Shown here: in pieces, positions 5,105 through 31,638 of the stretch | How positions within the stretch are numbered: position 1 is the stretch's first letter | Layout of the letters: each line of letters starts with the position of its first letter | Assembly: GCF_055900595.2 (NCBI RefSeq) | Contig: NZ_CM148325.1 | DNA: 64,000 nucleotides | Reading direction: 5' to 3' (one strand) | Translations under genes and position numbers: made by a program | Notes under the pieces: generated by a model | The model's input: the letters and a program-made list of their open reading frames with translations, nothing else | What the model was told of the DNA's origin: nothing | Databases searched by the model: none

Positions 5105-6463
5105 ATGTCGCATAACGTTACTCCAAACACCTCTCGCGTGGAATTGCGTAAAACGCTTACGTTAGTTCCGGTTGTAATGATGGGTCTTGCCTATATGCAG
5201 CCGATGACGCTGTTTGATACTTTTGGTATCGTTTCAGGCCTCACGGATGGTCATGTGCCGACAGCCTATGCGTTCGCATTGATTGCGATCCTGTTTACGG
5301 CTCTGAGCTACGGGAAGCTGGTTCGCCGCTATCCTTCTGCTGGCTCTGCATATACTTACGCCCAGAAATCCATTAGCCCGACTGTCGGCTTTATGGTGGG
5401 TTGGTCTTCTCTGCTCGACTATCTGTTCGCGCCGATGATCAACATTCTGCTGGCGAAAATCTATTTTGAAGCTCTGGTGCCTTCCATCCCATCGTGGATG
5501 TTTGTGGTGGCGCTGGTGGCCTTTATGACCGCCTTTAACCTGCGTAGTCTGAAATCCGTAGCGAACTTCAACACTGTAATCGTCGTGTTGCAGGTAGTGC
5601 TGATCGCGGTGATTCTGGGCATGGTTGTTTATGGCGTATTTGAAGGTGAAGGCGCTGGTACGCTGGCGAGCACTCGTCCGTTCTGGTCTGGCGATGCGCA
5701 TGTTATCCCGATGATTACCGGGGCGACAATCCTGTGCTTCTCCTTTACCGGCTTTGACGGCATCAGCAACCTGTCGGAAGAAACCAAAGATGCAGAGCGC
5801 GTGATCCCGCGTGCGATTTTCCTGACCGCGCTGATTGGCGGCATGATCTTCATCTTTGCAACTTACTTCCTGCAGCTGTACTTCCCGGATATCTCTCGCT
5901 TTAAAGATCCGGATGCGTCACAGCCTGAAATCATGCTGTACGTGGCAGGTAAAGCATTCCAGGTTGGTGCGCTGATCTTCTCCACCATTACCGTACTGGC
6001 GTCCGGTATGGCGGCGCACGCAGGTGTTGCGCGTCTGATGTACGTAATGGGTCGTGACGGCGTGTTCCCGAAAAGCTTCTTCGGTTATGTACACCCGAAA
6101 TGGCGTACTCCGGCGATGAACATCATCCTGGTTGGCGCGATTGCCCTGCTGGCAATCAACTTCGACCTGGTAATGGCTACGGCGCTGATTAACTTTGGTG
6201 CGTTGGTGGCGTTCACCTTCGTTAACCTGTCGGTCATCTCGCAGTTCTGGATCCGTGAGAAGCGTAACAAGACGCTGAAAGATCACTTCCAGTATCTGTT
6301 CCTGCCGATGTGTGGTGCGCTGACCGTTGGTGCGCTGTGGGTTAACCTGGAAGAAAGCTCAATGGTTCTGGGTCTGATCTGGGCGGCTATCGGTCTGATT
6401 TACCTGGCTTGCGTCACCAAGAGTTTCCGTAACCCGGTTCCGCAGTACGAAGACGTAGCGTAA
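5105..6463 (+). CDS. plaP: Putrescine importer PlaP (APC-family permease)
   Basis: 452-aa multi-[39 protein letters not shown]... Confidence 0.9.
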
Positions 6464-13235: not shown

Positions 13236-13440
13236 TTAACAACAGCCTTCTTCTGTATGCAGCAAGGCAAAAAGTTCTGTAACTCCATTGTTATTAACTG
13301 CACTGGTTACTAACACGTTGTGCGCTCCAGCTTCCCGTAACCAACTTTTCACCAAAGATATTTGTTCCATGCTGGCTAAATCTGCTTTGGTTACTACTCC
13401 AATGACCGGGTGATTCATGGCCCGGTAGGGCGTTTTTACC
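13236..13440 (-). pseudogene. C-terminal remnant of a small GTPase (EutP/PduV-like), truncated upstream by the IS66 remnant
   Basis: Minus-strand tail ...NHPVIGVVTKADLASMEQISLVKSWLREAGAHNVLVTSAVNNNGVTELFALLH; no P-loop region remains. Confidence 0.4.
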
Positions 13441-13484
13441 TCTAATTCCTGCTTCAGCGCTGAGATTCCTGCTTGTTGCCGGAA

Positions 13485-13649
13485 AAGCAGGCACCTGCCG
13501 TCTGAACGGTATCGATCCGGAAGCGTATCTGCGCCATATTCTGAGCATACTGCCGGAATGGCCCTCCAACCGTGTTGACGAACTCCTGCCATGGAACGTA
13601 GTTCTCACCAATAAATAAGCGTCAATACGGTGCTCCGTTGACGCTTACT
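13485..13649 (+). mobile_element. IS66-family remnant: 3' end of tnpC plus terminal inverted repeat
   Basis: Plus frame AGTCRLNGIDPEAYLRHILSILPEWPSNRVDELLPWNVVLTNK* parallels the C-terminus of the intact IS66 TnpC at 24160-25731; ends in ...CGCTTAC, the complement of the GTAAGCG IR. Confidence 0.7.
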
Positions 13650-13846
13650 TTAATCCGTTTTCTGAGCTTAGATTTTTCTGTTCCTACCCAGACCGTGGAT
13701 TTGGAATTCATTTTTTGTCAGGTCAATGCTAATCGTTAAAACGGCCATAACGCACCTCCACTGGAAGGTTTATCAGTAATATCCTACCGTTGCTTCATGG
13801 TCGGGGCGTCCATTCCATTATTATCGGTTTTCCTTTCTGTTTATAA

Positions 13847-13878
13847 ATGAAAACGCCAGCTGTATTCAGGCTGGCGTC
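13847..13878 (-). terminator. Rho-independent terminator downstream of yeeW
   Basis: Minus strand GCCAGCCTGAATACAGCTGGC followed by GTTTTCATTT. Confidence 0.5.
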
Positions 13879-14032
13879 AGGGGAAATGAAGCCTGTTGAG
13901 TGAGATTCACCGCTTCTGGTGCAGAAGCTGCAGATGGCGCAGGGTAAGGACATCTTCTCTTGCCTGCTTAATACAGGACAACAGTGCTGTTTCTGTGGTT
14001 AATGGCACTATACCCTGCATCACTGCATTGTC

Positions 14033-14227
14033 TTACAGCAACTGGTGAGGGCTGGCATAAGTTGCCGGTGTTTCGGTAGAGTCACGGTCATCCACCACGC
14101 GGAGTGAATAACCTTTTTCAGCGGCCTTATTAATCAGTTCAGTGATATTAACACCATCAATGTCAACGACAATGTGCCCCATATCCAGCGCCTGTACGTT
14201 AACGCTGTCGGCTTCCAGTGTCATCAT
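14033..14227 (-). CDS. yeeW: CP4-44-type prophage protein YeeW
   Basis: 64-aa ORF MMTLEADSVNVQALDMGHIVVDIDGVNITELINKAAEKGYSLRVVDD...; its start overlaps the cbtA stop. Confidence 0.8.
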   Translation of the reverse strand: MMTLEADSVNVQALDMGHIVVDIDGVNITELINKAAEKGYSLRVVDDRDSTETPATYASPHQLL

Positions 14228-14597
14228 TTCGCCTCCGGATACTTACCCAGGGTAATGTTATTTACCGTTCTGTAATTGTCGCGGGTCATCAGGCCGGTCG
14301 CCCTGCGAGCCCGGAGGATATCGATGCTGTTTATTAACTGAGAGCGGGTACAGGCGCTGAATCCCGGCTGGTCGGTAGCACCAGCGCGTATTTTTCCACG
14401 AGAAAGTTCACCGCATCACACAGTGAAATGCCTGCCTCAATATGCTGCTCAATCACACGTTCATCGGCAAAAGGTGTGTCATTCAGTGTGAGGCCATAGT
14501 GCTGGTCCAGCAGTCGGGACAGCAGTATCTGCCAGATTTCAACAGGAGACGGGCGAGAACTGGTCGCCTGCCCGGGTAATACAGGTAATGTTTTCAT
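14224..14597 (-). pseudogene. cbtA: Type IV toxin CbtA (YeeV), frameshifted
   Basis: N-terminus [36 protein letters not shown]... intact to ...VEKYALV, then frame is lost near 14395; the C-terminus ...NSIDILRARRATGLMTRDNYRTVNNITLGKYPEAK reads in an adjacent frame. Confidence 0.8.
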
Positions 14598-14685
14598 ACT
14601 GAAGATTTTCCTGATATGCAGATATAAAAATGGAAAAGTGGCGTGGTGAAAACACCAGGCCGTAGCAGAAGGCTATTCTGGAGAG

Positions 14686-15054
14686 TTAATTTTTCATTTC
14701 GGGCGTCGGATAAACAGCCAGATAAACGTAACCACAACTGCTGAGGGTATCGGCTTTGCAGGTCAGCCCTTTTGCATACAGCGTGACGGTATGCTGATGG
14801 CGGGGATTCAGTTCACCGCTGGTGAGCATGAGTTCCAGTTGTTTCATCAGCAGCGGAAAGGCCTGGTCCAGGTGGTACGCATCTGCATCGCTGAACAGGC
14901 CTCTGATACCGGCGCGGTCGGCAAGGTAATGCAACCGGTTACCCTCCTGCACCAGACGTGCCCCGAAACAGGGCGTCACGGTGCAGGGCAGCCCCCACCA
15001 GGGGCGGTCGTGATTGTCGTCGGGAAGTGTTGTCCCGGGGAGTGTGTCTGACAC
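14686..15054 (-). CDS. cbeA: Antitoxin CbeA (YeeU)
   Basis: 122-aa ORF MSDTLPGTTLPDDNHDRPWWGLPCTVTPCFGARLVQEGNRLHYLADRAGI... Confidence 0.9.
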   Translation of the reverse strand: MSDTLPGTTLPDDNHDRPWWGLPCTVTPCFGARLVQEGNRLHYLADRAGIRGLFSDADAYHLDQAFPLLMKQLELMLTSGELNPRHQHTVTLYAKGLTCKADTLSSCGYVYLAVYPTPEMKN

Positions 15055-15127
15055 GATAAAATCCTTACAGAAAATCGGCTAAGAATGGTCCGGTAGTGGC
15101 GATAATTCTGCTCATCAGAATTCCCAC

Positions 15128-15349
15128 TCAGTTCAGGGTGACGCTCATCAGCCGGACATACGGACCAAAACTGTCCTTACGGCGTTCAGCAAACACGGCC
15201 AGCACACCGGGAATATCCTGCACTTCACGACCGGTATACGCTTCAGCACTGCCGTGCCAGCGGTATTTACCGGTACAGAACGGAAAAAGACGGGATGTCG
15301 GATGTTGTTGGTGAATACGCATGGCTTCACCACGGGTGATAATTTTCAT
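15128..15349 (-). CDS. yeeT: YeeT (DUF987) prophage protein
   Basis: 73-aa ORF MKIITRGEAMRIHQQHPTSRLFPFCTGKYRWHGSAEAYTGREVQDIPGVL... Confidence 0.85.
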   Translation of the reverse strand: MKIITRGEAMRIHQQHPTSRLFPFCTGKYRWHGSAEAYTGREVQDIPGVLAVFAERRKDSFGPYVRLMSVTLN

Positions 15350-15411: not shown

Positions 15412-15903
15412 TTAAAGCAGACCATGTTCGGCAAAGGAGAAAACCTGGTTGCCACCGACTATCAGATGGTCCGGCACCCGGATATCCACCAGGCCCAGTG
15501 CCTGTACCAGACGTTCCGTGATAAGGCGGTCTGCCTTACTGGGTGTGACTTCACCGGAGGGGTGATTGTGTGCCAGCACCACGGCAGCGGCATTGTGGTA
15601 CAGGGCGCGTTTAATCACTTCCCGGGGATGGACTTCCGTGCGGTTGATGGTGCCGGTAAAGAGGGTTTCACCGGCAATCAGTTGATTCTGGTTATTCAGA
15701 TACAGCACCCGGAATTCTTCACGCTCCAGTCCCGCCATGTTCAGAATCAGCCATTCCCGTGCTGCACGGGTGGAGGTGAAGGCCACGCCGGGTTCATGAA
15801 GATGGCGGTCCAGGGTTTTCAGGGCCCGTTGAATGAGGCTGCGCTCGCCGGGCGTCATCTCTCCGGGCAGAAAGGAAAGTTGTTGCATTGTGCTTCTCTC
15901 CAT
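15412..15903 (-). CDS. yeeS: RadC-like JAB-domain protein YeeS
   Basis: JAMM motif HNHPSGEVTPSKADRLIT; exact start (15903 or a downstream Met) uncertain. Confidence 0.85.
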   Translation of the reverse strand: MERSTMQQLSFLPGEMTPGERSLIQRALKTLDRHLHEPGVAFTSTRAAREWLILNMAGLEREEFRVLYLNNQNQLIAGETLFTGTINRTEVHPREVIKRALYHNAAAVVLAHNHPSGEVTPSKADRLITERLVQALGLVDIRVPDHLIVGGNQVFSFAEHGLL

Positions 15904-18751: not shown

Positions 18752-19822
18752 TTATTTAATCCGGGCCATCGCGTTTCTCAGTGCCAAATCTGCCTCTTCC
18801 GTTATATCCAGGCTTTTCTGCAATACCGCCTCTGACCGGGTCAGTGCCTGACGTGCTGCCAGCGGTTTCCGGATATGCTCCATCGCCAGCATCGTGTCTT
18901 CATAGCCCTGCTGACGCCAGGCGTCGGTATGTGCCGATGTAAAACTGAGCAGACCGCCGCTGTTGCCACCATCACCTGCATATTTCAGCCTTTTCCGGGG
19001 ACGGATCTCAAGGATTGTGGTGTCCGGAAAAGCCTGGCGATCCCATAAAGAACCGTCACTCAGATGCGTCACAATCACCATATTGCATCCGGCATCGACC
19101 AGAGGTGTCACAGGGGTATTTCCCTGCATATTTCGCCATCCTCCCATACCACCATCACCGAACATTGTCCCCTGAACCTCACGGGGACGGAACAGCAGGG
19201 GCAGCGCGGCTGACGCAAGCAGAGCCTCTTTCTGCTGTCCGCGGGGCAGGCTCTGGATATGCTGAAAAACGGCGTTTTTCGTGGTTCCGACACCCAGTTC
19301 AGCACGAATGCAGTCAATAATATCCTGCATGCCCCCTTCTGTGGGGTACAGCGACACATACAGCGGTAGCCCGTCTGCCAGAGCATCAGTATCAAGATAA
19401 TGATCCATCAGCGCTGTCAGGGGTTCATCTGACAACAACGGCTGAGCCATCAGATTGTCAAACCCGTTGATTGTCGATATATGGCGAAGAAGCGTCGTAA
19501 GCAGTGCTCCTGCACGTCCGGGGATCTGGCAGAGGTTCATTGCCTGGAACAATTTTTTCAGCAATGAAAAGTAAACCAATCTGTTTACCGACAGCACCTG
19601 ATTATTCCCCAGATGATCCCAGAGCGCCTCCAGGCGTACGGCAGCTTCTGACAGATCGGGAGAGGCCACGATAATGGCACCATTGAATGCGCCAATGCTG
19701 GCCCCTGAAACCATGCTGATCTGTGTACCACACTCTGCCAGTGCCTTAACCACTCCCGCCTGATAAGCGCCCACCGCCCCGCCACCGGACAGCACCAGCC
19801 CCGTTTTCATTTCTGTACTCAT
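18752..19822 (-). CDS. Patatin-like phospholipase
   Basis: Oxyanion-hole LSGGGAVGAYQAG, nucleophile elbow GASIG (GxSxG) and catalytic DGG (FGDGGMGG); start overlaps upstream stop (ATGA). Confidence 0.85.
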   Translation of the reverse strand: MSTEMKTGLVLSGGGAVGAYQAGVVKALAECGTQISMVSGASIGAFNGAIIVASPDLSEAAVRLEALWDHLGNNQVLSVNRLVYFSLLKKLFQAMNLCQIPGRAGALLTTLLRHISTINGFDNLMAQPLLSDEPLTALMDHYLDTDALADGLPLYVSLYPTEGGMQDIIDCIRAELGVGTTKNAVFQHIQSLPRGQQKEALLASAALPLLFRPREVQGTMFGDGGMGGWRNMQGNTPVTPLVDAGCNMVIVTHLSDGSLWDRQAFPDTTILEIRPRKRLKYAGDGGNSGGLLSFTSAHTDAWRQQGYEDTMLAMEHIRKPLAARQALTRSEAVLQKSLDITEEADLALRNAMARIK

Positions 19823-20724
19823 GCAGCCCCCTTCTGAAATATTTCATCGACCATACTTTCAGAGAGGCGTTCTGCAGAGCAGAGGCGAGGCATGCGAACC
19901 GGTAAGTGTTCTGCAGCCTGCGTGGTTGACCAGATCACCGGATGCTGCTCTTCACTGCACCAGTCTCCCAGCCAGTTAATCGCGTCATGCCACTCGTTAT
20001 CTGCCTGCTCCCGGCCCTGACCACCAAGCCAGTCCAGAGTGTTCAGACGCACGGTTGCACTACCGCCACTCTCCTGTGCCATCTGCGTTAATGCTTTATG
20101 TCTGAGAATATCCAGTAGCTGGTTAACCTGGCCTGTTTCGCTCTGACGTATCACATCACCAAACGCGCCCCAGCGAAGCTCTTCAAGTGCCACATAACAA
20201 CGTCCGGCAGGGGAAAATGACGCATATCGCCCGGCGCTCCACCATGAGAATATCTGCTCAAGATGTAACTGCGCCCGCTGAACCTGGTCAACACGGTGGA
20301 GTTTTTCTTCAAGATGATTCAGTTTATGGTGAACCTGATCGGCCAGGGTGAGTAACTGCTCCCGCGTATCTGCGGAATAATGCGCCAGCCTGGCTGTATC
20401 ACTGACCAGTGAACTGACCCTGTCGTTTACCCGGGTAATCGCGTAGTTTGTGGTGGCAAGTGACGTTGTCATCTCCGTCAGCCAGCGCAGGGACGCCTCA
20501 ACGCCCTGTGCAAGCGACGCATTGATGGCATTCTGCCGTGCAGCGCCTTCGCCGGTCAGCCCCTCTTTTAAACGCCGGAAGAACGTGCGCTCTCCGGCCG
20601 TGCGGATATGCTCCTGTGCAACATCGATTCCGTTTGCGAAATCAACCACAAATTTTTCAGGAAGACAGGTGAGTACCTGACATACCCGGTTATCAGCAAT
20701 TTGTTGAATAAATGGTGAAGTCAC
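19819..20724 (-). CDS. Hypothetical 301-aa protein, translationally coupled between the dynamin-like and patatin genes
   Basis: ORF MTSPFIQQIADNRVCQVLTCLPEKF...; no motif recognised; 4-nt ATGA overlaps at both ends. Confidence 0.7.
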   Translation of the reverse strand: MTSPFIQQIADNRVCQVLTCLPEKFVVDFANGIDVAQEHIRTAGERTFFRRLKEGLTGEGAARQNAINASLAQGVEASLRWLTEMTTSLATTNYAITRVNDRVSSLVSDTARLAHYSADTREQLLTLADQVHHKLNHLEEKLHRVDQVQRAQLHLEQIFSWWSAGRYASFSPAGRCYVALEELRWGAFGDVIRQSETGQVNQLLDILRHKALTQMAQESGGSATVRLNTLDWLGGQGREQADNEWHDAINWLGDWCSEEQHPVIWSTTQAAEHLPVRMPRLCSAERLSESMVDEIFQKGAA

Positions 20725-23117
20725 AGCATTGTCTCCAGCTCTTCCCTCAGCGCCTTACTGTCAGTAATGAGCTCAGGAACCCTTTCATTTAATGCCTGAA
20801 GTCGCCCGGTAAGTCGTTCCTGCGCCTGCTGATCGCGTTTATGATCTTCAGAGCTCTGAATCAGCGTGTTACGCAGTTGTTCAACTTTCTCCCTGAATGC
20901 GCAGAAAAAGGCATCGATTTCCTGGCGGACGGGCTGGTTAATATCCTGCTCAATGGATGCCTGCAGCTCCCCGAAATATGCCCGGGTCAGTGACATAACT
21001 TCCTCTCTGACCTTGTTGATATTGATCACGCTGCGACTCACATCCTCGTCATAGTTTTCCCAGCCCAGGTCACTGGTGCCAAACCATCGACAAACGGTTC
21101 CCCATACGCCACTCTGCCGACGGCGACGGGTGACGGTCTCCGTTCTTTCCTCCATAAGCGCACTCAGATTTATTTTTACCGCGAGCCGGGTCTGTAACTG
21201 GCTGACTGCCGGAAAACTGATTTTTACGGTAAAGCCCTCATCCTCCAGGCGGGCATTGATGCGACCGGCAATGTTTTCTGTGGCGTACAGGGCCGTGCCA
21301 CGAAAACCTGTTTCAATCCCGCTGACGATTTTCTCCAGCTCAGGCCGGAACTGTGCTTCAGCCTCACGGTGCAGGCTGGTCACGGTCGATTCGATTTGCG
21401 TCATCAGTTCAAGGGCTTCCCTGCGATCACTGAATTTTATTTCGGGGCTGTCCGGGGCAAAATCTCGTTTCCTGTAATCCTCCCGGCCCTGGTTGTTGAT
21501 ACCGGACCATTGAGAAATTTTCCCCCATAATCCGGACTGAGACCTTCGTTGTTCTGCGTCTTCTTCCTCCAGCATTTGCTGTTCTTTGCGTTTACCGCTT
21601 CTGAAATAGTCATTCAGCTCCTCTTCCAGTGAGGTGCAGACCCCCGTCAGTAATTCCCGGGTTTTAGTATCGATCTCCTCCATGGCCATTCTGACATCAG
21701 TGGTCATCTGCTCCTGACAGTCCGCGATTTCCCGGATATCCGCAAGCAGGCTGGTGATATGCGACTGCAGTGACTGAATGCTTTGCTGTAGCCCCTGATG
21801 GCGTAACAACAGGTATTCACTGATATTTTCTGCATTCTGCATCAGTTTTGCGGCGGCAGAGTCAACCGCCAGTGCCGCAGCTCTGGAATGTGAGCTCTGT
21901 ATGACTTCCGTTATCAGTTGATCGATAAGTGAGCCTTCCCACAGGTCTGTCGCCCCTTCAGTTGCCAGTTCACTGTCTTTACAGACGTATTCTTTTTTCA
22001 TGCAACCGAAGGCACCTCTGATAAAATCATCGACCCAGGCTTCATCAACAGGAAGGGTTCCGTTTTTCCGTAACTCATGAAGCGCACGGTTAGCCAGGTA
22101 TGCCTGGCGTGAGGATCCGGGATAAACGCGGGAGGCGGGCAGCACATTGCTGTTCAGCATTGCCGGAACTTTCTGGCGTACGGCATCTGCCCCATCGCCA
22201 TTGCGGTCTTTCTCATCAAATTTATTGACCAGTACAAACAGGCGGCCGGCTGATACGTCAGCAATGGCATTAAGCTCTTTACGGACGTCTTCATCCGCTT
22301 TTGAGTTCATCTGTGTGTAATCCATCACAGCCAGAACCGCAGAGGCTTTCTGCAGTTGATCCCGCATCATCACTTCCATCTGCGGTTGTCCGGCCTCATT
22401 AGGGCCGGGGGTATCCAGCAGTGTGAGTGTTCCCTGGCATGCATCCATCCCCACCAGATGGCTGAATTCCACGTCGATCACCGGCAGTTTCTGCACTTCT
22501 GCGTATTCATCAAAAGGAAATTCAGTCCCCATTGCCGCAGCAAGACGAACCAGATCGTTTAACGATGCCAGTCCGGTAAAGATTTCCTCCTCCCCGTGGT
22601 ATTCATTTTTGAGCCAGCCATCATCCGTCAGAATATCCAGCAGTTCGCGGGTATCCCCGGTTTGCTGCAGGGTCTGTGCGACCTGCTGTCCTGCCGGGGT
22701 GGCGAGTTTTTCCTGCAGTGTGATTAATAAATTGCGGACAGGCTGAATATGTTCCAGATGGAGAACCGGCTCAGTTTTTCCGGGAACGTGGCGGATGAGC
22801 GTCGGTACAGAGGTCATGGGGCGGTTACGGTTAGGCAGAATTTCCTGCCCCACAATGGCGTTGATGGTGGTTGATTTGCCTGCTTTCATCGTGCCGACAA
22901 CAGCCAGCACCATCTCCCTGCGGGCGGTTTTGATTTGTTCGCCCTCCAGCTCCTCAATTCTTTTCAGTGCTTTCTGTTTATCAAAAAGCAGTCTGTTTTC
23001 GTTCTTACTGTCAGATAACACATCTGGCTCCTCAACCATTTGCCGGAGCAGATTAATGTTCAGTTGCAAAAGTCGGTCGGCTTCATCACAAAGCAGGGCG
23101 ATGTTCTTTTCGTGCAT
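20721..23117 (-). CDS. Dynamin-like large GTPase (bacterial dynamin-like protein, 798 aa)
   Basis: G1 GTMKAGKST, G3 DTPG, G4 NKFD, followed by a long helical, charge-rich stalk region. Confidence 0.85.
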   Translation of the reverse strand: MHEKNIALLCDEADRLLQLNINLLRQMVEEPDVLSDSKNENRLLFDKQKALKRIEELEGEQIKTARREMVLAVVGTMKAGKSTTINAIVGQEILPNRNRPMTSVPTLIRHVPGKTEPVLHLEHIQPVRNLLITLQEKLATPAGQQVAQTLQQTGDTRELLDILTDDGWLKNEYHGEEEIFTGLASLNDLVRLAAAMGTEFPFDEYAEVQKLPVIDVEFSHLVGMDACQGTLTLLDTPGPNEAGQPQMEVMMRDQLQKASAVLAVMDYTQMNSKADEDVRKELNAIADVSAGRLFVLVNKFDEKDRNGDGADAVRQKVPAMLNSNVLPASRVYPGSSRQAYLANRALHELRKNGTLPVDEAWVDDFIRGAFGCMKKEYVCKDSELATEGATDLWEGSLIDQLITEVIQSSHSRAAALAVDSAAAKLMQNAENISEYLLLRHQGLQQSIQSLQSHITSLLADIREIADCQEQMTTDVRMAMEEIDTKTRELLTGVCTSLEEELNDYFRSGKRKEQQMLEEEDAEQRRSQSGLWGKISQWSGINNQGREDYRKRDFAPDSPEIKFSDRREALELMTQIESTVTSLHREAEAQFRPELEKIVSGIETGFRGTALYATENIAGRINARLEDEGFTVKISFPAVSQLQTRLAVKINLSALMEERTETVTRRRRQSGVWGTVCRWFGTSDLGWENYDEDVSRSVININKVREEVMSLTRAYFGELQASIEQDINQPVRQEIDAFFCAFREKVEQLRNTLIQSSEDHKRDQQAQERLTGRLQALNERVPELITDSKALREELETML

Positions 23118-24159: not shown

Positions 24160-25731
24160 TTACTGAGAGCTCAGATCAACTTTCCAGGGCAACAGATCGC
24201 GTACCCGGTTTGCCGGCCAGTCCTGGATATGTTCAATGACGTAACGCAGCCACTTTTCTGGCTCCACATTGTTCAGACGGCATGTGCCGATCAGCGAGTA
24301 CAACACCGCCGCATGTTCACCACCGCTGTCGGAACCCGCGAACATCCAGTTTTTCCGGCCTACGGCCACTCCCCGTAAGGCGTTCTCTGCGATGTTGTTG
24401 TCGATTTCCACCCAGCCATTACTGCAGTACACGTTCAGTGCATCCCACTGTTTCAGCAGGTATGCGAACGCTTTTGCCGTATCTGAGTGACGCGACAGTG
24501 TTTTCATCTGTTGCTGTATCCAGTCATACAGTGACTGCATCAGTGGCGCGGCTCTGGCTTTTCTTGCCGCCAGACGCTGTTCTGCTGAACAGCCCCGGAC
24601 CTCTGCCTCGATGGCATACAGTTCACCGATACGCTGCAGGGCTTCCGTGGTGATGTAGGTGGGCGCTCTTGCATGCACATCGTGGATTTTTCTCCGGGCA
24701 TGAGCCATACACGCGGCTTCCGTTATTCTGCCGGATTCGTATAACGCCCGGTAACCACCGTAAGCATCGGCCTGAAGCACACCGCTGTAACCGGCCAGGT
24801 GATTTTGTGGATGGATACCTTTCCGGTCCGGACTGTACGCGAACCAGACCGCCGGGGGCATCTGTGAACCGGCGTTACGGTCATCACGGACGTAGACCCA
24901 CAGCCGGGCTGTCCGGGTTTTACCGCTGCCCGGCTCCTGGACCGGGACGGGGATATCATCAGCATGGACTTTACCGGGCATCAGCACATACTGGCGCAGG
25001 ACGTCATACAGCGGCTCCAGCAGTTCAGCAACAGCACCTGTCCAGCGCCCCAGTGTGGCACGGCTCAGCTCCACTCCCTGACGACGGTATATTTCTGACT
25101 GGCGGTATAACGGCAGATGGTCTGCATATTTCCCGGTGACAACATGGGCCAGAAGCCCCGCTCCGGCATAACTGCGTGCAATGGGTTTTGAAGGTACTGG
25201 TGCCTGCACGATATGGTCGCACCGGCAACAGGCCTGTTTCGGACGTTGTGTTTCGATAACCTTAAAGGCGCTGCTGATAAGCTCCAGTTGCTCTGACACA
25301 TCACATCCCAGAGAACTGAGTTCACCACCACAGGCAGGACAGCATTCCTCTTCCGGCCGGATAACCCGGGTTTCACGGGGAAGTGAGGCCGGTAACGGTT
25401 TACGGGCTGAAGACTGGCGCAGGGCGGATGGCAGTACCGGGTCATATTGCTCACCCAGCGTTTCCGCCATTTCTTCCTGAAGTGCGCTGATTCGCTCCTG
25501 TGCTTCCTGTATCTGCCGTTCGGTTTTTGCACGAAGTTTTTCTGAGCTTTTACCGAACTGCATACGTTGCAGTTTCGCAACCAGCGCCTTCAGCCGGTTG
25601 ATTTCGGAAGCATAAGCCGCCACCCGCTGTGAGAGCAGGCGGTTGTATTCAGCCATCTGGCGGATGGTGTCCTGTTGCGTCTGCAACAGTGCCCGCAGGC
25701 GGGCGTTCTCATGAGCAAGTGAGGTGTCCAT
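24160..25731 (-). CDS. tnpC: IS66-family transposase TnpC (Orf3)
   Basis: 523-aa ORF with N-terminal coiled coil, zinc-ribbon CPACGG and C-terminal ...[27 protein letters not shown]. Confidence 0.9.
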
Positions 25732-25750
25732 ATCCTCACTTTACAACGGG

Positions 25751-26098
25751 TTATATGCGGATTCCAGCGCGTTCCGTTCGTTTCGGGTGCTTCCAGTTGA
25801 TACCTTCAAGAAGCATGGATAACTGAGCCGGAGTAAGGTGCACCTTGCCGTCACGGGTGACTGGCCAGACGAAGCGGCCCCGCTCCAGGCGTTTGGTGAA
25901 GAGGCACAGTCCGTCACTGTCAGCCCACAACACTTTTATCTGGTCACCCCGGCGTCCGCGGAAGATGAACAGGTGTCCGGAGAACGGGTCATCCTTCAGG
26001 ACGTTCTGAACTTTTGATGCCAGGCCGTTAAAGCCATTTCGCATATCGGTGATACCTGCAACCAGCCAGATACGCGAACCTGCAGGGAGAGATATCAT
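25751..26098 (-). CDS. tnpB: IS66 Orf2 (TnpB)
   Basis: 115-aa ORF MISLPAGSRIWLVAGITDMRNGFNGLASKVQNVL... Confidence 0.9.
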   Translation of the reverse strand: MISLPAGSRIWLVAGITDMRNGFNGLASKVQNVLKDDPFSGHLFIFRGRRGDQIKVLWADSDGLCLFTKRLERGRFVWPVTRDGKVHLTPAQLSMLLEGINWKHPKRTERAGIRI

Positions 26099-26775
26099 CA
26101 GTGGCTGCTCCCTTTTATTTCGCGGATAAGTGTCTGTAATAACGCCGGCGTCAGTTTACCTTTAAGCCTGAGAGTTCCGGCCGGCAGAACCAGCTCACAA
26201 CACAGACTGTCGGACGGTGTATTTATCCGCTCTGGTTCCTGTGCGGGGGCCGGGATTTTATTATCCGGCTCCGGCGTTAACGTCACGGGAAGCAGTGCCG
26301 GCATATTTTTTCCGGAAGGCAGCAGGCCACCTTTCCGGTATTGATGGCGCCAGTTGAAGAGCAGGTTATCGTTGATTCCGTTTTCCCGGGCGATCTGCGC
26401 CACACAGGCTCCGGGCTGCAGTGACTGCTCCACTAAGGCGATTTTAAACTCATAAGGGAAGTTGGGCCGCCGGGGACGTTTTTTTACCACGGGGGCTTCG
26501 GATATAACGGTGCTTTCAGGACGTACGACTGGTACCGTGGAAAATTGTCCGTAAAGGCAGGCATCAAGTTCCTGCTCCGACATGCCTGCGGGCAAAGGCC
26601 ACGAAAGGCCAGCTCTCCGAAAGCGCACGAACATACTACAAACTGTTGATTTTGGTACACCCAGGCGACGCCCGGCCACAACCCGGGGTAAATGTTCTTC
26701 AAAGTGAAGACGTAAAGCTTCAGTGATCCAGGTCCGGTGTTTCATACGATAGTGTCCATTAAAAATGATGGACAT
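26098..26775 (-). CDS. tnpA: IS66 Orf1 (TnpA, HTH protein)
   Basis: C-terminal half matches IS66 Orf1 (FKIALVEQSLQPGACVAQIARENGINDNLLFNWRHQYRKG...); start codon uncertain. Confidence 0.8.
   Translation of the reverse strand: MSIIFNGHYRMKHRTWITEALRLHFEEHLPRVVAGRRLGVPKSTVCSMFVRFRRAGLSWPLPAGMSEQELDACLYGQFSTVPVVRPESTVISEAPVVKKRPRRPNFPYEFKIALVEQSLQPGACVAQIARENGINDNLLFNWRHQYRKGGLLPSGKNMPALLPVTLTPEPDNKIPAPAQEPERINTPSDSLCCELVLPAGTLRLKGKLTPALLQTLIREIKGSSH

Positions 26776-29680: not shown

Positions 29681-31638
<1,958 letters not shown>

Follow-up and report, generated by a model that had tools for sequence, protein, structure and literature searches.

An intact antitoxin gene beside a frameshifted toxin gene raises the question of whether the frameshift is real and, if so, whether the toxin has been lost. 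The window, that is, the whole 64,000-nucleotide stretch of DNA that was analysed, covers the E. coli chromosome around sbmC-yeeA-tmaR and carries the right end of a CP4-44-type island on the minus strand. The island genes are arranged in the order yeeW, cbtA, cbeA, yeeT and yeeS, followed by antirestriction, DUF932 and further genes. This is the same locus as that of the type IV pair CbtA/CbeA (YeeV/YeeU) in the cryptic prophage CP4-44 of K-12 (sbmC-yeeA-tmaR ... yeeW-cbtA-cbeA-yeeT-yeeS). The features of the region are as follows.

13236..13999, strand not given: degraded right island end, as annotated by PGAP in the CP53 locus, which is 100% identical, and transferred to the window
13236-13418, within the degraded end: EutP/yoeF fragment
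13481-13618, within the degraded end: IS66-type transposase fragment
13907-13999, within the degraded end: DUF957 fragment, neighbouring the 3' side of yeeW
14033..14227, minus strand: yeeW, intact, 64 aa, restricted to the N-terminal part of a DUF5983 protein, 63/64 identical to K-12
14224..14597, minus strand: cbtA (yeeV) pseudogene, 374 nt as against 375, from the K-12 alignment and the PGAP entry 'cbtA ... frameshifted' on identical sequence
14227..14376, minus strand: untranslated CbtA remnant, residues 75-124 in the adjacent (-1) frame, with its stop codon at 14224-14226
14334..14597, minus strand: surviving ORF of 87 aa, made up of 73 native CbtA codons followed by 14 codons out of frame and a TAA stop
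Between 14378 and 14377, minus strand: site of the 1-nt deletion, where codon 74 (CGT, Arg74) lacks its G, from the K-12 alignment
14598..14685, minus strand: cbeA-cbtA intergenic region, 88 nt, 0 differences from K-12
14686..15054, minus strand: cbeA (yeeU) antitoxin gene, intact, 122 aa, 121/122 identical to K-12, Pfam CbeA_antitoxin
15128..15349, minus strand: yeeT (DUF987), upstream gene of the conserved island module
15412..15888, minus strand: yeeS, encoding a RadC-like JAB domain protein of the island module

The alignment of cbtA with the 375-nt K-12 gene revealed two differences, a 1-nt gap at gene position 221 and the SNP G34A (Ala12Thr), which corresponds to a DNA identity of 373/375. 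The lesion is thus a single-base loss in a 99.7% identical ortholog and no chance pattern, and the original prediction, made from the letters alone, that one base is missing relative to K-12 was borne out. While the predicted frameshift itself stood, its placement after ~68 codons, near 14395, did not: the true site in codon 74, at 14377/14378, lies about 17 nt and 5 codons away. The surrounding sequence, GTGC[G]TACC, is non-repetitive and contains no homopolymer, in agreement with the description of the region as poor in homopolymers. In-frame translation ends after Val73, and the product therefore lacks the C-terminal 51 of the 124 toxin residues; as compared to K-12 CP4-44, the toxin in the window is in frame only for residues 1-73. 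The missing C-terminal peptide is still encoded in the adjacent frame, as had also been noticed: residues 75-124 are preserved unchanged at 14376..14227, with 100% identity to K-12 over 50 residues. The start of yeeW overlaps the original cbtA stop (ATGA). Any translational coupling between cbtA and yeeW is predicted to be lost, as ribosomes would stop 107 nt before the yeeW start.

The antitoxin gene is full length, as predicted, and its product matches the Pfam CbeA_antitoxin profile (PF06154) with an E-value of 4.3e-53 over profile positions 1-100 of 101. This CbeA protein, WP_001285585.1, is found in strains with the deleted cbtA as well as in strains with an intact one. The cbtA gene lies 88 nt downstream of cbeA on the same strand, the position expected for a member of the CbtA_toxin family, and no further CbtA or CbeA paralogs are present in the 64-kb window. 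Full-length DUF5983 genes of 159-163 aa, as against the 64-aa yeeW, occur in other, less degraded island copies. For cbtA/cbeA loci, a 2026 paper (PMC13294457) raises the possibility that DUF5983 and a neighbouring ORF flagged by AntiFam are linked by programmed frameshifting.

The module lies among many pseudogenes and elements of the IS66, IS21/IS100 and ISL3 types, as in a decaying island. Upstream of yeeS, the window has antirestriction, DUF932, patatin-like and dynamin-family genes, whereas K-12 has yeeR-flu. The patatin-like phospholipase, RdcB-family and dynamin-family genes lie at 18752-23117, and beyond them come an IS66-family element, at about 24160-26775, and then, at 29771-31572, an IS21/IS100 element. 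Elsewhere in the window, positions 2748-2961 contain no counterpart of the yefM-yoeB toxin-antitoxin pair, which strain WCHEC040047 carries between hisL and yeeZ (its locus positions 5455-5957); the interval measures ~657 nt in that strain and ~214 nt in the window.

What the deletion does to the toxin can be read from the domain that remains. The 87-aa product matched the Pfam CbtA_toxin profile (PF06755) over residues 1-73, with an E-value of 3.1e-37 and 127 bits (cut-off 25). It covers profile positions 1-73 of 112, as compared to 1-112 for the K-12 protein, so that 39 of the 112 positions are lost, and no single frame contains the complete domain of about 124-126 aa, the frame being broken after codon 73. 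We aligned 34 full-length homologs, 124-126 aa long and 69-90% identical, that came from Escherichia, Klebsiella, Citrobacter, Enterobacter, Serratia and Raoultella. Of the 43 invariant columns, 17 fall in the part from residue 74 onwards, R74 itself and the 8-residue block S91-IDILRAR-98 among them. The conserved residues R74, D76, G79, S91-IDILRAR-98, G102, L103, Y109, I115 and G118 are all downstream of the frameshift and absent from the product. This C-terminal conservation argues that the lost segment is necessary for the selected function. Judging from these sequence features, the 87-aa allele would have lost its toxicity, which in the full-length protein stems from binding to FtsZ and MreB and gives lemon-shaped cells when the toxin is overexpressed.

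Taken as a whole, the locus is probably an inherited null or strongly weakened cbtA allele in a decaying CP4-44 island, in which the antitoxin has been retained. The original prediction had offered toxin inactivation in a decaying prophage as one of two explanations. This explanation is the best supported, by the IS elements and gene fragments and by the loss of the conserved C-terminal third of the domain, with the qualifications that the loss of toxicity is itself predicted and that the lesion is no private event of one strain.

The strongest competing explanation is that the 87-aa product folds through an N-terminal three-helix core and binds FtsZ, and perhaps MreB. It would then be a weaker inhibitor, or one of division alone, and with CbeA counteracting it the pair would form a working, modified toxin-antitoxin module. 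We consider this rather unlikely, although several features of the retained part point towards it. R15 and F65, the residues genetically shown to mediate target binding to MreB and FtsZ, respectively (Heller et al. 2017, PMC5624674), are both within residues 1-73. In an AlphaFold2 model of full-length CbtA, the three-helix core of residues 12-72 is predicted confidently (pLDDT 75-91), whereas residues 80-124 are of low confidence (pLDDT below 50). However, this model is only moderate (mean pLDDT 64.7) and is based on a shallow alignment, and we found no solved structure for the CbtA toxin family. C-terminal truncations of CbtA reportedly cause cell elongation. A passage of a review summarising Tan et al. 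2011 assigns the FtsZ interaction to the N-terminus of CbtA and the MreB interaction to its C-terminus (PMC3920263). In addition, the expression signals are unchanged, the intergenic region being identical to that of K-12, and the 87-codon ORF is intact in very many genomes. On the other hand, the segment that was lost holds the 17 invariant columns with the invariant block, and the protein may be made unstable by its out-of-frame tail of 14 residues.

The variation among the deleted alleles bears on the same point. The protein variants of the 87-aa product comprise A12T, R15H, R47C and V6G in the native part, together with further changes in the tail that is read out of frame. Every one is non-synonymous, and one affects R15, which fits relaxed constraint and speaks against partial function, although the comparison has no synonymous baseline. 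Substitution of the same residue in R15C abolishes MreB binding (Heller et al. 2017, PMC5624674). The deleted allele of the O103:H2 strain CEC12044 carries G44A, which yields Arg15His, and the same change is present in a partial database protein (P0014). The sampled deleted alleles contain no extra stops or indels, with 0-1 SNP per allele and an equally low background divergence. The yeeT-cbeA-cbtA-yeeW block differs by 0-1 SNP per gene between lineages, with deleted and intact alleles alike, and the 897 nt of junk downstream of the block differ by 2-9 SNPs. Since the background divergence is so low, neutrality and constraint are indistinguishable at the cbtA locus.

In a stronger version of partial function, the 87-aa product would be a selected attenuated variant that either inhibits FtsZ alone, and hence only division, or dominantly modulates the paralogous CbtA toxins. 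To us this seems more doubtful still. If it were true, selection would explain the ~27% carriage with an intact 87-codon ORF and cbeA, as well as the copying of the allele into a second island, described below. A genome-wide association study of microcin J25 resistance lists an associated non-wild-type cbtA sequence, without details in its text (PMC10926693), and this variant might be the 87-aa allele.

A further explanation places the repair of the toxin at the level of its expression: a programmed -1 ribosomal frameshift, or transcriptional slippage, would rejoin the two frames and yield near-full-length toxin at a low, regulated level. The chances of this appear very small. The two frames do overlap over gene nt 183-264, with an A5 run inside (G GAA AAA T, nt 203-207), and Lys-AAA codons are slip-prone in E. 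coli. However, the canonical X XXY YYZ heptamer is absent from nt 183-264, and the downstream 91 nt have a minimum free energy of -24.2 kcal/mol, as compared to a shuffled mean of -26.8 (z=+0.85), revealing no stimulatory structure. Moreover, the A5 run is equally present in the intact alleles and thus did not evolve with the deletion, and five A residues are too short a run for efficient transcriptional slippage. With a slip at this run, YALVR would become IRAGA, and the invariant L72 and R74 would be lost. With neither a slippery heptamer nor a stimulatory structure, and with a slip product devoid of these invariant residues, programmed frameshifting was rejected.

The remaining question, whether the deletion exists in the bacterium at all, was addressed in the population by the comparison with other strains that the original prediction had called for. 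An 80-nt probe centred on the deletion was searched for exact matches in 5,426 complete E. coli genomes and was found in 1,486 of them (~27%, about a quarter), including O157:H7, O55:H7, O111:NM, O103:H2, O20:H12 and ETEC strains. The corresponding intact K-12 probe was exact in 1,775 genomes, a count that includes paralogous island copies identical over the probe. At least 40 complete genomes from unrelated projects are 100% identical to the stretch 14000-15100 (1,101 nt). In a collection of 15 billion proteins, the exact 87-aa protein was present on at least 1,000 contigs, as was the intact K-12 protein. The gene is marked as 'cbtA ... frameshifted', a pseudogene, in all nine deleted-allele records inspected in RefSeq/PGAP, and our literature search found no published description of the deleted cbtA allele. 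The identical deletion is therefore shared by many E. coli lineages. A sequencing or assembly error over a truly intact gene, the other explanation first offered, has a negligible probability and was rejected on this population evidence: the same deletion is shared by independently assembled genomes from many laboratories and sequencing platforms, its exact product recurs on the contigs counted above, the PGAP flag appears in every lineage inspected, the site is not homopolymeric, and the deletion moves inside a recombination tract in O55:H7. With the same lesion in independent genomes and its disruption recognised by the reference annotation, as expected of an inherited pseudogene, the frameshifted cbtA is a real, inherited and common allele that is already a pseudogene in public annotation. 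It is an old allele shared across the species and no private decay of the source strain.

The deleted alleles also retain traces of their history. Those of O157:H7 and O20:H12 are the same as the intact K-12/YPE3 allele except for the deletion, while those of the window, O111 and O103 additionally carry G34A, and the O103:H2 strain also has the G44A change. Since the deleted alleles otherwise match the intact K-12/YPE3 allele, the deletion occurred on a common K-12-like haplotype, to which the SNPs were added afterwards. As judged from the allele sequences, a single origin is likely; at a site without repeats, the same base is unlikely to have been lost several times independently. We considered a recurrent hotspot deletion and found it unlikely, with a non-repetitive site and an allele that travels in recombination tracts. 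The flanks of the deleted alleles vary by lineage, with 0-12 SNPs in yeeS and 8 in yeeT of the O111 strain, and the intact-allele strains YPE3 and Ecol_316 have the same CbeA protein as the deleted strains. The flank variation, together with the CbeA shared across both allele types, thus indicates recombination around the site.

In the O55:H7 strain DEC5D, the deleted allele resides in a different island copy, where ISEc31 truncates cbeA and the DUF5983 and DUF957 genes downstream are full length. We compared this mosaic with the same island in the O157:H7 strain 9234, in which the toxin is intact. In DEC5D, 55 consecutive informative sites are of the CP4-44 type (locus positions 1276-1640, the deletion included), and they are flanked by 54 and 298 sites of the second-island type. 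This tract of gene conversion, at least 365 bp long, has brought the 5' part of a CP4-44-type cbtA into the second island. The exact mosaic is present in three O55:H7 genomes, and 16 records match it at 99% or better. The deletion has thus been copied into a paralogous second island by gene conversion in an O55:H7 sublineage.

Other strains differ elsewhere in the module. In MINF_1A, which has the deleted allele, a single SNP has led to the annotation of an N-terminally shortened cbeA of 306 nt rather than 369; this short cbeA is possibly a second decay step of the module. In SK1144 and ZH063, cbtA is intact, yeeT and cbeA are separated by an additional hypothetical gene of 645 nt, and cbeA itself has diverged by 12 SNPs, an arrangement which indicates that the module is mosaic among lineages.

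For the preferred reading, an inactivated toxin beside a retained antitoxin, we propose the following course of events. A single G would have been lost once from codon 74 of cbtA, on the common K-12-like haplotype. Translation would then leave the native frame after Val73 and stop 14 codons on, and the deleted allele would have been passed on within E. coli both by inheritance and by homologous recombination. The antitoxin gene is left intact. Since CbeA stabilises FtsZ and MreB polymers and does not act by binding the toxin, it may still guard the cell against CbtA-family toxins from paralogous loci and against other inhibitors of the cytoskeleton, and nothing would select against keeping its gene. 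Such a role would account for the retention of cbeA. Heller et al. 2017 (PMC5624674) describe protection by CbeA against FtsZ inhibitors in general, and according to Wen et al. 2017 (PMC5371832) each of the paralogous antitoxins YafW and YfjZ can neutralise either toxin, YkfI or YpjF. Copies of the CbtA family occur at a median of 3 places per genome, and many genomes have several. Given these several copies and the generality of CbeA, an intact cbeA beside a dead cbtA need not be useless.

The modules YkfI/YafW (CP4-6) and YpjF/YfjZ (CP4-57) and the CbtA copies of other islands belong to the same Pfam families and share the gene order, and their toxins target FtsZ and MreB. Sequence exchange through gene conversion also takes place between the CP4-44 copy and the CbtA-family copies of other islands. 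Unlike the cbtA of the window, the toxins of the YkfI/YafW and YpjF/YfjZ modules are full length. A closer likeness in state is provided by degenerate chromosomal toxin-antitoxin loci, which likewise combine a disrupted toxin ORF, an intact ('orphan') antitoxin and a decaying mobile element; a toxin pseudogene with a retained antitoxin is a commonly described fate of chromosomal modules. As compared to such loci in general, however, the antitoxin in the window is of type IV. Because it acts on the targets of the toxin and not on the toxin itself, the usefulness of CbeA is independent of its own toxin.

The frameshift at this locus is therefore a common, already annotated pseudogene allele of a well-studied toxin, and neither an artefact nor a new system. 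Its significance for biology at large is little; its consequences concern the CbtA/CbeA family and the strains that carry it. Counts of functional CbtA/CbeA modules are affected, the CP4-44 copy being truncated in about a quarter of genomes, including all sampled O157:H7 genomes, and CbtA-dependent phenotypes established in K-12 may not transfer to strains with the deleted allele. The O55:H7 mosaic illustrates cleanly how gene conversion can carry a null allele from one island to a paralogous one. Finally, the allele is a natural C-terminal truncation, which could be used for probing the proposed functional split of CbtA between FtsZ and MreB.
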